Positions 3,065 through 56,517 of a stretch of 64,000 nucleotides of DNA are shown one piece after another. The stretch covers positions 130,155 through 194,154 of the forward strand of contig JAYRXE010000037.1 in assembly GCA_041917695.1 (NCBI GenBank), written 5' to 3'. How positions within the stretch are numbered: the first letter of the stretch is position 1; each line of letters starts with the position of its first letter. Source of the stretch: Minisyncoccota bacterium. Lineage in GTDB: Bacteria; Patescibacteriota; Minisyncoccia; UBA6257; GWB1-50-10. The notes under the pieces are model-generated. The model saw nothing but the letters and a program-made list of their open reading frames with translations. It did not search any database and was not told where the DNA came from. Both the position numbers and the translations under genes were made by a program.

Positions 3065-3616
3065 ATGCAGACGAACAAAGGTTTTACGCTTATTGAGCTC
3101 TTGGTCGTTATCGCGATTCTCGCCGTTTTGGCGACTGCAGTCGTCGTCGTCCTTAATCCGGCACAGCTCGTAAAGCAAGGCAGGGATTCGACCCGCATCT
3201 CGGATCTTGCAGCGATTCATTCCGCGCTTGCGCTCTATCTTTCCGATGTCGCTTCGCCTTCGTTTACGGCGACGACTACCTGCACCGCAACTTCAACGGG
3301 AGGCGCACACCCTACCGGATTTACGACCGCCCAAGTGAATGCGTCAACGACGGTTGGTACGACCGCCTGGGTGAACGTCAATTTCAGCTCCATCAGTTCG
3401 GGTTCGCCGCTTGCACGGCTTCCGATTGATCCGGTAAATGATGCTACATATCACTACTGCTATAAGAGCTCATCGACGCTCATATACGAATTGGATGCGA
3501 ATATGGAAAGCTCCAAGTATGGAGGAGGATCTTCTGACGTTGAAGCGGGGACTAAAGATGGCGGGAACGATGATAACTGGTATGAAATTGGTAACGCGCC
3601 AGGCTTGAATTTATAG
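3065..3616 (+). CDS. Type IV pilin (PilA-like major pilin)
   Basis: MQTNKG|FTLIELLVVIAILAVLA is a class-III prepilin leader with G-1, F+1 and E+5, and it lies upstream of pilB/pilC. Confidence 0.75.
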   Translation: MQTNKGFTLIELLVVIAILAVLATAVVVVLNPAQLVKQGRDSTRISDLAAIHSALALYLSDVASPSFTATTTCTATSTGGAHPTGFTTAQVNASTTVGTTAWVNVNFSSISSGSPLARLPIDPVNDATYHYCYKSSSTLIYELDANMESSKYGGGSSDVEAGTKDGGNDDNWYEIGNAPGLNL

Positions 3617-24345: not shown

Positions 24346-24714
24346 GTGGAAACATTTACCGCAAATAATCGAAAATTCACTGTAGGAGATGAGCTAAAAG
24401 TATGGCATAAAGGCGCGTGGTATAAGGCGATTTCTATCTATTTGAGGCCGCGGAAGCTCTATTATCCGAAATCTATTTACGAAGATGGCTTGCGCTTGGG
24501 GCGGGATCTTAATTTGATTGAGGAGACTGCTAACGGTTGGGCTCGATTCGAAGACAGAGGAGATCAATTTATGGTGGTGAAAATAATTGCCCGATTGTCC
24601 GTGGATGAAAGATTAAAGGAGGTCCCTGAATGCCCCGAAGAATTGTCTTGCAGCAAATATGCTACGCTTATTCATAGCACTGAAGAGGAATACGATCCTT
24701 TGCGACTGGAATAG
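24346..24714 (+). CDS. Hypothetical protein (lower-GC gene with strong SD AGGAGG and GTG start)
   Basis: AAAGGAGGGCTGCGTG gives SD spacing of 5 nt. Composition is lower in GC than the flanking ribosomal genes, and no motif was recognised. Confidence 0.4.
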   Translation: METFTANNRKFTVGDELKVWHKGAWYKAISIYLRPRKLYYPKSIYEDGLRLGRDLNLIEETANGWARFEDRGDQFMVVKIIARLSVDERLKEVPECPEELSCSKYATLIHSTEEEYDPLRLE

Positions 24715-32120: not shown

Positions 32121-32149
32121 TTGACTTTTTAATAAAATAGTTATATAAT
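32121..32149 (+). promoter_or_regulatory. Canonical sigma70-type promoter (TTGACT-N17-TATAAT) driving islet gene 32208-32822
   Basis: -35 TTGACT at 32121-26, a 17-nt spacer, and -10 TATAAT at 32144-49. Confidence 0.55.
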
Positions 32150-32156
32150 ATTATTA

Positions 32157-32172
32157 TCCTGAAAAATCAGGA
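32157..32172 (+). promoter_or_regulatory. Perfect palindrome TCCTGA-AAAA-TCAGGA at the predicted transcript 5' end (operator or 5' hairpin); near-identical copy at 45962-45977
   Basis: A 6-bp inverted repeat lies 7 nt after the -10 box. It is followed by AAAGAAAGGA...ATG. The same arrangement occurs upstream of the gene at 46014. Confidence 0.5.
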
Positions 32173-32207
32173 AAACTTAACAAATTTAAAAGAAAGGACT
32201 GACTGTT

Positions 32208-32822
32208 ATGTCACATGACAATGACAACACTCAGCTGACGCTCTCTGAAGTACAGGGACCGTTAAATCAACTAAACGTAAACTTAACCGGCCCCGAGGGC
32301 AGGAGATGGCTATCGGCGCTCAACAGATTCCTACGCAAGGAGGATACCGCCTGGGATGTACGGAATTTCGACGTATGGAAAAGCGTGAAATTAGGAACCT
32401 ACAAGAATATCTCAGAATTAAAAAAAGCGCTTATGGATTCAGGCTTCAAGTTAATAAGCGATGATAGAACAAATCTCCTTCTTGATGAGATGGATTTTTC
32501 TGAAGTCGCAACTATAATCGAAGCTGATTTAATCCTTGTTTCAGTAAAAGAGCTTGGATTCAAAAAGGGCGCAACCAGTGAAGAAATTTTGGAGAGAGCT
32601 CGTGAGCTTGGTCTCGAATTATGTCCAGCTGAAGCAGCTCCCCAGTTGCAACTTCAGTTTCCAAACCAGGTAGAAAATCCCTATATGTATGTACGTTCCA
32701 AGAGTGGTGATTTGAGTTGTTTTCATATTACGAATTCCATGATATTTGCTGCACTTCCCACTAGTCTGCAAGATTTTTGGAGCGCTAGCGGGTACTTTGT
32801 TTTTGTCCGTCTTAGAAAATAG
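32208..32822 (+). CDS. Hypothetical protein encoded on low-GC islet 1
   Basis: A 204-aa ORF in an AT-rich stretch (about 40% GC by eye) between rseP and proS, with an AAGGA SD 9 nt upstream of the ATG. It shows no known motif. A KKG..S..E.L motif recurs twice. Confidence 0.45.
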   Translation: MSHDNDNTQLTLSEVQGPLNQLNVNLTGPEGRRWLSALNRFLRKEDTAWDVRNFDVWKSVKLGTYKNISELKKALMDSGFKLISDDRTNLLLDEMDFSEVATIIEADLILVSVKELGFKKGATSEEILERARELGLELCPAEAAPQLQLQFPNQVENPYMYVRSKSGDLSCFHITNSMIFAALPTSLQDFWSASGYFVFVRLRK

Positions 32823-32844: not shown

Positions 32845-32870
32845 AAGCCCCTTTTAGGGGCTTGTTTATT
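32845..32870 (+). terminator. Rho-independent terminator ending islet 1
   Basis: AAGCCCC-TTTTA-GGGGCTT followed by GTTTATTT. Confidence 0.7.
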
Positions 32871-45922: not shown

Positions 45923-45924
45923 AC

Positions 45925-45953
45925 TTGCATAATTAGAAAATTTGTGGTATACT
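45925..45953 (+). promoter_or_regulatory. Canonical sigma70-type promoter (TTGCAT-N17-TATACT) driving islet gene 46014-46991
   Basis: -35 TTGCAT at 45925-30, a 17-nt spacer, and -10 TATACT at 45948-53. Confidence 0.55.
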
Positions 45954-45961
45954 TAAAACAG

Positions 45962-45977
45962 TCCTGAAAAATCGGGA
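45962..45977 (+). promoter_or_regulatory. Palindrome TCCTGA-AAAA-TCGGGA, second copy of the element at 32157-32172
   Basis: It lies 8 nt after the -10 box, with the same downstream AAAGAAAGGA...ATG context as islet 1. Confidence 0.5.
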
Positions 45978-46013
45978 TTTTTTAATAATTCAAAAAGAAA
46001 GGAAAAAACTGCT

Positions 46014-46991
46014 ATGAAAGACGAGCAGAACACCTTCAAGCAAACCGGGAAATTTGTTTCCACGATTTTGGAAAATTTTCCAAAATTGAACGAAGTAGAA
46101 ATCCAATACTGGATTGAACATCCATTGGAAATTAAGGAGATCATAAAAAGATTCTCCAATGTCCCCATTCTCCATATATCCCAAAACCCTTCCTTAACGG
46201 AAAGAATTATGAAGGGAAAATATACGGATATGGATCCTCGTATTACGGAAGAAACTTTTCCCATCCTCATCCCACATGATTATCGCGTTCAGTATGAGTT
46301 GTTTCATTTTGACATGGTTATGCCGTCCCAATTGGTTGTTGAAAAAATGACCCAGAAGGGATGCCGGCCCGCCACGCTCATAGAATTGCTCGAGTTTGGG
46401 AGATCTAAACCGGAAATTCAAAAGAAATTTCCCGTTATAGCCCTTGGCTCGGCAATAAAAAAGGGGGACGGAGAGTGCAGGGTTCCGTTTTGTGATAATT
46501 GCGGTTCAAGAATTACCCTCGCTTCGTATGGTGCCCAGTGGAATAAGGCCTGCCGTTTTCTCGCTGTGTATGATGGAAGGAAAATTCTTCATATTTCCGC
46601 CGGGCTTTCTGCTGAAGAAAGAATTAAAGCTGGAAGGTATGATTTGGTAGGCTTCTATGTTAAAGAAGCTGTTTTAAAGGCTCATCCGGTAGTGAAAGAC
46701 TATGAGGCTGAATACGAGCTTTTTCACTTCAAGAAGGAAATCGAGTATTACCCCGACGCGGTCGAGAGAATGTATAAGAAAGGATTTAGGCCGGCGAATG
46801 TGCATGAGTTGTTGGCGCTCGGGACTGCGTATCCCCACCTTCAAAAGAAATTCCCCATTATAGAAATTGAAGGGGACGAACTAGAATACCTTACTTTAGA
46901 TTATGACTCGGCTAAGGGCCGCTCTTTGCTTACGCGCCGCCTTGATCGAGAGTGGTACGGTATACTTCGTATTCTTGGAGTACGTATGTAA
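46014..46991 (+). CDS. Hypothetical protein on low-GC islet 2 (internal tandem duplication of about 95 aa; Cys cluster)
   Basis: Repeats DYRVQYELFHFDMV...KGCRPATLIELLEFG...IQKKFPVIALGS and DYEAEYELFHFKKE...KGFRPANVHELLALG...LQKKFPIIEIEG. CRVPFCDNCGSR...C lies between them. Confidence 0.45.
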   Translation: MKDEQNTFKQTGKFVSTILENFPKLNEVEIQYWIEHPLEIKEIIKRFSNVPILHISQNPSLTERIMKGKYTDMDPRITEETFPILIPHDYRVQYELFHFDMVMPSQLVVEKMTQKGCRPATLIELLEFGRSKPEIQKKFPVIALGSAIKKGDGECRVPFCDNCGSRITLASYGAQWNKACRFLAVYDGRKILHISAGLSAEERIKAGRYDLVGFYVKEAVLKAHPVVKDYEAEYELFHFKKEIEYYPDAVERMYKKGFRPANVHELLALGTAYPHLQKKFPIIEIEGDELEYLTLDYDSAKGRSLLTRRLDREWYGILRILGVRM

Positions 46992-47005
46992 GAGATAGGT
47001 TTAGT

Positions 47006-47036
47006 AACCCCCCGCTTGTGCGGGGGGTTATTTTTG
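47006..47036 (+). terminator. Rho-independent terminator ending islet 2
   Basis: CCCCCCGC-TTGTG-GCGGGGGG followed by TTATTTTT. Confidence 0.8.
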
Positions 47037-47040
47037 GCAC

Positions 47041-47081
47041 TTGACACCCTTGAGTGCTGATTTATAATTCAAGCACTAAAA
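47041..47081 (+). promoter_or_regulatory. hrcA promoter (TTGACA-N16-TATAAT) overlapped by a CIRCE-like inverted repeat
   Basis: -35 at 47041-46 and -10 at 47063-68. The inverted repeat is TTGAGTGCT (47050-58) ... AGCACTAA (47072-79). Confidence 0.5.
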
Positions 47082-55263: not shown

Positions 55264-55334
55264 TTGCGGGATCGTCTAACGGTAGGACGTTTGGCTCTGA
55301 ACCAAAAAATTGGGGTTCGATTCCCTGTCCCGCA
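55264..55334 (+). tRNA. tRNA-Gln (anticodon CTG)
   Basis: Acceptor TGCGGGA/TCCCGCA with U1:A72, a 3-bp D-stem GTC/GAC, anticodon arm TTTGG-CTCTGAA-CCAAA (CUG), T-arm TGGGG-TTCGATT-CCCTG, and discriminator G. Confidence 0.75.
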
Positions 55335-55485
55335 GCAAAAACAGAAACGCCGGCTTAATGTCGGCGTTTCTGGTTTGGTGTAGAATGGAGGGGAATCGAA
55401 CGGAAAGGGGGTCGGGGAAACGGGAGTTTCCCTGTGGCGGATGCCCTGAAACCGCTGGGTTTCAGAGAGCGAAGCGACGTGAGAC

Positions 55486-55500
55486 CTCCCTGTCCCGCAG
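55486..55500 (+). repeat. 15-nt exact direct repeat of the tRNA-Gln 3' end (TCCCTGTCCCGCAGC), putative att-site remnant
   Basis: Identical to 55321-55335 (T-stem 3' half, acceptor 3' strand and discriminator). It lies 165 nt downstream of the tRNA, just before the low-GC insert. Confidence 0.55.
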
Positions 55501-55551
55501 CAAAGTTGAGAGACGCTCGAGGTCTATTAGGGTAATAAAAAATTTTTAGCT

Positions 55552-56517
55552 ATGGCTGGATACGATCAAACCATAATAGTTAGAGCAGTTTTTGAAAAAG
55601 AAGCTAGGAAATTTTTTGGTTTCCTTCAGAATATAGGAAGAAGATATGCTAGACCGGTAAGAATTAATTATCGTTATTTGAAAAGAGGTCGTTTCCATGT
55701 GGTGGTAGACGGAGGCTCAGGTGGAATAGATGCTCTTTTTCAAGAACTTGTAATTAATAGGGGGTTATACTATTACGCTTGCACTTTACAAAATAAAAGA
55801 ATAATTATTGATGGTGTTGTTGTTCCAATATTTAAGCAATTAATTGACTATAGATTCCTTAATTCCCAGGCGAGATTTTTAAGAAAACATATTCTAGGTA
55901 AACACGCACAAACAGATTTTGTACCAAGTTATATAAAAAATAAATTTGGAAATTCGTTTGAAATTCTCTTTAGAAAATGGGATTTAAAATCCATTTCTAA
56001 CAAAGAGTATGTAGTGGAGCTAGACGCGCTCTTAAACGACTTTCTTTTAGAGAAGCTTGGGCACAAGCCAGGCGGGAAAAGTAAGGATTTTTATAACTTA
56101 GTACGAGACGCAAAAAAAGTTTTTCCTTTAGGAGGAGATGTAGAAACTGCTTTTCGAAAAACCCATGATTTAAGAACTCGGTTTTTGCATAGACGAATAG
56201 ATGCTTCAAGGGAAACTGTAAATATAGAAGAAATTTCCATTATTTTATATAACTATTTTAGTTATTTAGATGACTTTGAATATTCACAGCGTTTTAAATA
56301 TATTATGAAACGCGGTAAAAAATATAAGCGATATAAGTACGGCGAGGCTATTTGGAAAACGAAAGGTCATGAGATTTTTGAGGAATCAAAAGTAGCTCAT
56401 AATCCTTGCTCTGACTGTGATGTTCTGAAGGGTTTCTATCATGTTGAGGGTTGCGATATCGAACGGTGTCCCGCTTGCGGAGGTCAATTGTTATCATGCG
56501 GCCACAGATCTTTTTAA
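55552..56517 (+). CDS. Hypothetical protein on tRNA-Gln-adjacent low-GC islet; C-terminal Cys/His zinc-ribbon-like motif
   Basis: A 321-aa protein, AT-rich and Lys/Tyr/Phe-rich. The C-terminus reads [36 protein letters not shown], and a central Rx4H-like RTRFLHRR is present. No transposase or integrase motif was seen. Confidence 0.4.

Follow-up and report, generated by a model that had tools for sequence, protein, structure and literature searches.

What is the single, foreign-looking gene that stands between a pilin-like gene and hrcA in this genome of the Patescibacteria, or candidate phyla radiation (CPR), and how does it differ among strains? The gene lies in a low-GC islet (islet 2) at 45923 to 47040 of the window, which is the whole 64,000-nucleotide stretch of DNA analysed here; the host genome has a GC content of ~55%. 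A preliminary description, made from the sequence alone, had proposed that islet 2 and a similar islet elsewhere in the window (islet 1) encode divergent members of one uncharacterised family under a shared regulator and form a candidate novel accessory system. Our analysis indicates that islet 2 is probably a horizontally acquired, monocistronic orphan of a lectin-fold protein family targeted elsewhere in the CPR by diversity-generating retroelements (DGRs), and that it probably varies here by cassette replacement. Islet 2 is best called a DGR-less, tandem, cassette-borne form of a known CPR family, not a new system.

The predicted open reading frame (ORF) of 325 amino acids (aa) was recovered at the expected place. 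Its GC content is 0.43 and its GC content at third codon positions (GC3) is 0.46, compared with a GC3 of 0.71-0.73 in the neighbouring hrcA and dnaK genes; the foreign-looking composition noted for both islet genes is upheld. The protein has neither a transmembrane (TM) segment nor a signal peptide (maximum KD19 hydropathy, 0.74), and its coding region, in which the segments equivalent to the variable region (VR) of DGR targets are marked, is organized as follows.

46014 to 46991, plus strand: islet-2 ORF, 325 aa, with an N-terminal helical region (residues 1-48) and two tandem C-type-lectin-like domains
46158 to 46571, plus strand: domain 1 (residues 49-186), a canonical CPR DGR-target C-type-lectin domain (hhalign 99.9%, E 1.8e-32)
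46434 to 46577, plus strand: VR-equivalent of domain 1 (residues 141-188, GSAIKKGDGECRVPFCDNCGSRITLASYGAQWNKACRFLAV), which contains the "Cys cluster"
46590 to 46988, plus strand: domain 2 (residues 193-325), a more degenerate copy (hhalign 99.5%, E 6.9e-23, profile positions 63-199)
46857 to 46988, plus strand: VR-equivalent of domain 2, in which the GSxW motif is lost

Modelling of the islet-2 protein gave a C-type-lectin-like fold, shown for domain 1, and the structural matches include dozens of animal C-type-lectin-like domains. The two halves of the protein share 47% identity over 57 aa (BLASTP, E 7e-16). The duplication that had been read as two repeats of about 95 aa is therefore real, but the unit is a complete domain of ~135 aa (49-186 and 193-325). 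What had been taken for a Cys-rich linker between the repeats is the C-terminal third of domain 1, and the Cys cluster does not characterise the family: its cysteines sit within the VR-equivalent and are unconserved among members. A metal-binding Cys site was rejected for the same two reasons, the position of the cysteines in the VR-equivalent segment and their lack of conservation. The sole recurring cysteine is the one before RFLAV, which at true DGR loci is derived from a TAT codon in the template repeat (TR). In the VR-equivalent of domain 1 the framework of the family is kept and the Asn-rich pattern is gone.

Membership of the family was established by profile comparisons. A sequence search returned 72 homologues of the islet-2 protein, all of them hypothetical proteins of Patescibacteria, mostly 190-210 aa long and covering one repeat. 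When a HMMER profile was run against all 1.84 billion cluster representatives, 8186 clusters (counted at 50% identity) matched at E <= 1e-3, many with two or three tandem domains, and the islet-2 protein itself (P0001) scored 227 bits in two stretches. Its match to the family extends over the full ~135 aa of the domain, with the C-terminal W...RFLAVRK included. The family has no Pfam or NCBIfam model; with more than 8000 clusters and yet no such model, genes of this kind pass as mysterious orphans in raw annotation. The islet proteins, together with typical homologues, found no meaningful match in Pfam, NCBIfam, PADLOC or PHROGs, with islet 2 unmatched in PADLOC and islet 1 receiving one chance-level match (0.052). 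Neither the FGE-sulfatase domain (PF03781) nor DUF1566 (PF07603) was found by hmmscan at E values up to 1 in the islet proteins and typical family members, and a PDB sequence search with the family profiles returned either a chance-level match to OspC3 (E 0.034) or none.

The association of the family with DGRs was examined in genome contigs, which were scanned with a profile built from a 17-sequence alignment. The scan gave 91 confirmed cellular matches, from which 80 loci encoding relatives were kept, nearly all in metagenome-assembled genomes of Patescibacteria, and each gene was compared with its own surroundings. In about 30 of the 80 loci, a copy of the gene's final ~130 nt, 75-94% identical, is found 215-409 nt downstream, and in 27 scored pairs 472 of the 532 mismatches (89%) fall at an adenine of the downstream copy. 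The combination of a downstream repeat with adenine-biased mismatches is the VR/TR signature of a DGR. A reverse transcriptase (RT; Pfam RVT_1) lies 3' of the TR in loci L044, L049, L012 and L041. The closest homologue of the islet-2 protein, P0004 (45% identity), is encoded in a cassette of target, TR, bAvd and RT, in which all 22 mismatches are at A. In genuine members the VR is the last ~44 residues, and an adjacent RT rewrites it using the TR, which lies ~300-400 nt downstream, as the source. The TR-encoded consensus is GSVWQNPNGNRNVPYLN.NDSKRNLNLNW.DNDWNDNYRFLAVRK, in which the Asn (AAC) codons mark the positions that vary in the VR.

A CPR-restricted DGR clade was reportedly first described by Paul et al. 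in 2017. Roux et al. (2021; PMC8144416) found CPR/Patescibacteria to be the lineages richest in DGRs and described a cell-encoded clade restricted to Patescibacteria ("clade 2"), whose targets have no TM segment or known domain and were suspected to be new C-type-lectin variants; these targets are small and apparently cytoplasmic. The family suggested earlier to be uncharacterised is thus an already described, unnamed, C-type-lectin-fold family targeted by CPR DGRs (PMC8144416).

Three further observations on the family were made. One phage-like contig also holds a member with a TR and an RT. In the 643-aa protein P0185, an N-terminal DnaJ (J) domain (E 8e-19) is fused to two C-terminal copies of the lectin fold, a possible sign that some members, at least, belong to a cytoplasmic setting linked to chaperones. 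Superfamily genes (L005-L084, L086 and L103-L107) have a mean GC content 0.11 above that of their flanks (0.59 versus 0.38 in L105); the cassettes of the window and of its sister strains lie 0.12-0.19 below their surroundings, opposite to most members. Such composition outliers fit frequent horizontal transfer or a family-specific composition.

Islet 2 lacks the retroelement. Searches of the 64 kb by blastn (word size 7) and by an A-tolerant scan sliding along both strands recovered no TR that fits either VR-equivalent of islet 2 or the C terminus of the islet-1 protein, no RT or Avd was detected in the window by tblastn with seven RTs (that of L092 among them) and one bAvd from related loci, and the hidden Markov models of three families found no further members in the window. 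With no nearby TR and no DGR-clade RT or Avd in the locus, islet 2 is an orphan, tandem and apparently non-diversifying paralogue. A natural orphan of the same kind is P0005 (L089), which keeps the gene, leader and downstream neighbour of the P0004 locus (L092) and has lost the TR, Avd and RT: the order in L092 is target, TR, bAvd, RT and a beta-CASP gene, and that in L089 is target, a MazE-like 60-aa ORF and a beta-CASP gene. This before-and-after pair shows how orphan targets arise.

The islet-2 gene is enclosed by its own control elements, whose positions are as follows (SD, Shine-Dalgarno).

45925 to 45953, plus strand: promoter found by pattern match, with a TTGCAT -35 box (45925-45930), an N17 spacer ending in TGG and a TATACT -10 box (45948-45953)
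45961 to 45978, plus strand: leader hairpin, with a 7-bp stem, an AAAA loop and the core TCCTGAAAAATCGGGA (45962-45977); dG -7.9 kcal/mol
45994 to 46003, plus strand: SD block AAAGAAAGGA, 10 nt before the ATG at 46014
47006 to 47035, plus strand: terminator, a AACCCCCCGC-TTGT-GCGGGGGGTT stem-loop (stem 47006-47029) followed by ATTTTT; dG -26.1 kcal/mol, z -3.8

The promoter, the palindrome and the strong terminator of the preliminary description all hold at these positions. TTGCAT-N17-TATACT occurs once in the window, against an expectation of 0. A generic promoter scan skipped it because the -35 box fits just 3 of 6 consensus positions; the TG at 45945-45946 makes an extended -10 element. The hairpin core is a 16-nt inverted repeat 8 nt 3' of the -10 box. 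The hairpin begins near the expected transcription start, and a run of six T residues (45978-45983) follows directly. The SD block is also present, although the N9 spacing given for both islets applies to islet 1 only (9 nt, compared with 10 nt in islet 2). The stem of the terminator is 10 bp long and G+C-rich. In a search of the whole window with Rfam 15 at gathering score, only one 16S rRNA and two tRNAs were found, and the leader was unmatched. Downstream, at 47034-47068, the terminator abuts a CIRCE-like inverted repeat, TTGGCACTT-N9-GAGTGCTGA, which overlaps a perfect TTGACA-16-TATAAT promoter directly 5' of hrcA-grpE-dnaK.

How the locus varies was revealed by sister strains, which were found as contigs encoding an exactly identical HrcA protein. 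On nine such contigs (L094-L102, from JGI and Logan samples), an ORF of 223 aa replaces the 325-aa gene between the pilin-like gene and hrcA. By BLAST, identity is 98.7% in the left flank as far as 46002, through the promoter, hairpin, T-run and SD, and 97.9% in the right flank, which resumes at 47016, in the terminator loop. The two flanks delimit one segment.

46003 to 47015, plus strand: strain-variable segment of 1013 bp, replaced by 712 bp in the sister strains (breakpoints 46002/46003 and 47015/47016)

The islet-2 promoter is thus kept in the sister strains with one single-nucleotide polymorphism (SNP) despite a different cargo. The 223-aa allele has its own terminator and a GC content of 0.39, compared with 0.575 in the flanks, and is identical in the nine samples. 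It belongs to another large CPR family, with 353 matches at E <= 1e-3. Aligned on its own by hhalign, the single sequence was negative against the family profiles of islet 2 and islet 1; the profile of its family matches that of the islet-2 family with 97.5% probability (E 8e-12), in an alignment of 176 columns that takes in the N-terminal helical part.

The same expression module recurs at islet 1, where it precedes a gene for a different protein.

32121 to 32198, plus strand: islet-1 module, with the promoter TTGACT-N17-TATAAT (32121-32149), the hairpin TCCTGAAAAATCAGGA (32157-32172) and the SD block AAAGAAAGGA (32189-32198)
32208 to 32822, plus strand: islet-1 ORF, 204 aa, a probable remote C-type-lectin-like relative, with its terminator at 32845-32863

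With one mismatch allowed, the hairpin 16-mer is present at two places in the window, where 0.01 would be expected, so that the likeness of the two upstream regions exceeds a generic promoter consensus, as had been supposed. The sole difference between the two hairpins (A to G) converts a U-A pair to U-G, which keeps the RNA pairing and breaks the DNA palindrome; this points, weakly given a single substitution, to an element that works at the level of the transcript. A regulator common to both islets is possible. The exact pattern TCCTGAAAAATCRGGA-N12-22-AAGAAAGGA was found in JGI metagenome contigs only once, on the opposite strand of an unrelated coding region, a match taken as chance, and not at all in viral contigs; the collection searched evidently did not include the sister-strain samples.

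The two islet proteins show no significant BLASTP similarity. At the level of family profiles, hhalign aligned them with 86% probability (E 5e-6) over 109 columns reaching both C termini, and the two families share fold matches. Placement of both islets in one superfamily is therefore probable, not proven, and the earlier view of them as divergent members of one family survives as paralogy supported by the profile link, without a pairwise signal. The islet-1 family is small (12 matches), and in three sampled members the 3-4 kb of downstream sequence available contains neither a TR nor an RT. The C-terminal 55 residues of the islet-1 protein are invariant across six strain variants, and in a strain of 98.9% identity the islet-1 gene carries SNPs at the background rate and the upstream module none. 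The invariant C terminus and the background SNP rate indicate that islet 1 is not being hypermutated. Considered together, the module at the two islet-2 alleles and at islet 1 means that one promoter-hairpin-SD unit drives three cargos of the lectin-fold superfamily.

These results suggest how the cassette may work. It would have been gained horizontally as a monocistronic unit, with transcription probably starting from the extended -10 promoter. The predicted mRNA would open with a hairpin of 6-7 bp, followed by an A/U-rich spacer and then by a strong SD, and would end at the strong terminator. In the transcript, the hairpin may serve as a stem-loop at the 5' terminus, either stabilising the mRNA or binding a regulator; this is the weakest step of the scheme. 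A conserved attenuator was considered for it and rejected because a T-run trails the hairpin in islet 2 only. The product is most likely a soluble ligand binder of fixed specificity, with the VR-equivalent C-terminal surface of each domain as its putative binding face. Variation at the locus would arise by replacement of the whole cassette behind a constant expression platform and not by retroelement mutagenesis. A broader proposal, which we regard as rather doubtful, is that in this CPR lineage cassette exchange and not a retroelement diversifies lectin-fold proteins derived from DGR targets, with the module and the terminator as the borders of a multi-locus "expression slot" system. The borders would then serve as recombination substrates or as a common regulatory handle, with at least two slots in the 64 kb and at least three cargos. 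Alternatively, the swap may be plain recombination or illegitimate replacement between strains.

Comparison with known systems places islet 2 closest to the CPR DGR targets. It matches single-domain members at E 1e-25 to 1e-28, and it shares with them the ~135-aa domain ending in W...RFLAVRK, the C-type-lectin-like fold and the absence of a TM segment, signal peptide and Pfam domain. It differs from them in having a tandem domain, no TR, RT or Avd in its window and VR-equivalents that have diverged from the Asn-rich TR-encoded consensus; unlike many of them, it is also without the R1 leader described below, and its GC content is below that of the genome, where most members are higher. TvpA of Treponema denticola (2y3c) and Mtd of the Bordetella phage (1yu0) are likewise C-type-lectin-fold DGR targets, but they have 6-10% identity and no detectable sequence similarity to the islet proteins; TvpA is a lipoprotein and Mtd forms the trimeric tip of a phage tail fibre, but export signals and fibre domains are both lacking in the islet proteins. 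The likeness to the C-terminal domain of Bdellovibrio Bd2740 (8oks) and to the C-terminal, DUF1566-type domain of Legionella Lcl (8q4e) is one of fold only, with no Pfam match, and the same applies to FGE-sulfatase-type domains (1y4j, EgtB and OvoA), from which no catalytic FGE/EgtB residues can be inferred. Antigenic-variation systems and integrons combine a constant promoter and ribosome-binding site with exchangeable coding cassettes. By analogy, islet 2 resembles such expression-site loci in that promoter, leader and SD stay constant while the related cargo behind them changes between closely related strains, with breakpoints at the SD and the terminator. In contrast to them, it has no silent arrays, recombinase or attC-like sites, and two alleles have been seen.

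Several observations weigh against the interpretation of islet 2 as a non-diversifying orphan varied by cassette replacement, or against parts of it. Domain 2 is poorly modelled, with a low pLDDT, because most rows of the alignment span domain 1 only. What connects the islet-1 and islet-2 families is the 86% hhalign probability together with the shared fold matches, and the profile of the 223-aa allele family does not match that of the islet-1 family. The folding energy of the hairpin is unexceptional for its composition (z -1.3 and -1.8 for the two copies), the T-run 3' of it is present in islet 2 and absent from islet 1, with the islet-2 hairpin flagged as terminator-like, and its RNA-level role depends on one G-U-compatible substitution. 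The three assemblies that carry islet 2 show 100% identity along stretches of up to 21 kb and represent the same strain, which makes them uninformative on VR variation in the population. The contig is ~680 kb long, of which the DGR searches span 64 kb, and a DGR elsewhere could act in trans. An active target of this kind, in which a TR and an RT outside the window diversify one or both VR-equivalents, is nevertheless very unlikely. The homology to genuine targets and the several family copies in some genomes speak for it, as does the GC-rich hairpin just 3' of the islet-2 gene, a hairpin downstream of the DGR target being also a feature of the BPP-1 system. However, the TR lies within 215-409 nt of the target in all 27 scored loci, and neither a TR nor an RT or Avd occurs in the window. 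The VR-equivalents are far from the TR-encoded consensus, as exemplified by the loss of GSxW in domain 2, and neither the C terminus of the islet-1 protein in six variants nor the 223-aa allele in nine samples varies.

Loss of the retroelement could also have left a decaying, functionless relic that is now drifting. The degenerate VR-equivalent of domain 2 would agree with this, as would the lack of close orthologues (the next best full-length match is 31% identical) and the complete replacement of the gene in the sister strains. Still, the intact frame of 325 codons, the good promoter, the strong SD and terminator, the core fold motifs kept in both domains and the conservation of the upstream module across three cargos make decay unlikely. 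It is quite improbable that islet 2 is a phage remnant or moron encoding a receptor-binding lectin-fold protein of a CPR phage, as only housekeeping genes surround either islet, with no phage genes, integrase or att repeats; the family scan yielded one viral locus against 91 confirmed cellular matches, and CPR DGRs are reported to be cell-encoded (PMC8144416). The novel accessory system proposed at the outset, a defence or toxin-immunity function of two paralogous units under one regulator, would account for two foreign-looking paralogues with a shared, non-random upstream element and for a locus that varies between strains. It is highly improbable, since each unit is a single gene within its own promoter and terminator and has no partner gene, PADLOC, PHROGs, Pfam and NCBIfam offer no match, and the identity of the family as a DGR target already accounts for it.

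As an orphan of the DGR-target family, islet 2 is ordinary for the CPR in its identity; the new details are the cassette swap on a constant platform and a covarying leader RNA in related loci. Members of the family persist in an expressed-looking state without the retroelement, and at least one lineage swaps whole genes behind a fixed promoter-hairpin-SD unit. The regulatory leader, the fixed-sequence paralogues, which are suited to biochemistry, and the natural allele swaps offer handles on the control and the ligands of these proteins.

The leader RNA of the related loci is a structured motif of ~53 nt, here named R1, which is located 3' of the promoter and 5' of the SD in many CPR DGR-target genes. 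It forms two stacked helices with a consensus of roughly GG.nGyCUGrG-hairpin-AUGAGrGGy.n.CC-AAAG, and examples are found at the following positions (contig and coordinates).

L048:4739-4791, R1 leader
L051:4787-4839, R1 leader
L076:4775-4827, R1 leader
L082:4806-4858, R1 leader
L037:2406-2459 and 3379-3434, two R1 leaders
L084:4014-4066, R1 leader
L067:5854-5906, R1 leader
L089 and L092, R1 leaders 5' of P0005 and P0004, respectively

A covariance model of R1 gave 22 matches at E < 1e-3 in 797 kb, all on the plus strand directly 5' of family genes and including loci and paralogues outside the seed. Pairing is present in 93.5% of the cells, compared with 75% in shuffles and at most 52% in slid controls, and double-sided changes occur in 12 of the 14 pairs. 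Rfam at gathering threshold found only rRNA and tRNAs in 14 related loci and left R1 unmatched. The R1 model has no match in the window, nor 5' of the islet-1 homologue in L086, which indicates that the short hairpin of the window is not R1. At least two further leader classes occur in related loci, one with CCCnTAACnCnCGGGnAGnGAGA and an AT-rich one with TTTTTTAAAATAATAATAACC.

Other features of the window include a low-GC islet (0.39) at 24346-24714 that encodes a 122-aa ORF with its own terminator and a weak match to a ParB-like PHROG (E 1e-3); it has no hairpin module and no match to the lectin-fold families. The 3' end of the tRNA at 55265-55335, TCCCTGTCCCGCAGCAAA, is repeated ~165 bp downstream at ~55488-55505, and 3' of this repeat lies the stretch of lowest GC content in the window (0.32-0.37), with a 321-aa ORF (55552-56517) that has a C-terminal CxxC...CxxC and no match in Pfam, PADLOC or PHROGs. 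The region from 55265 to 56517 may be what is left of an element that integrated at the tRNA. At 860-2373 lies a complete bacterial 16S rRNA gene (Rfam, 1419 bits).

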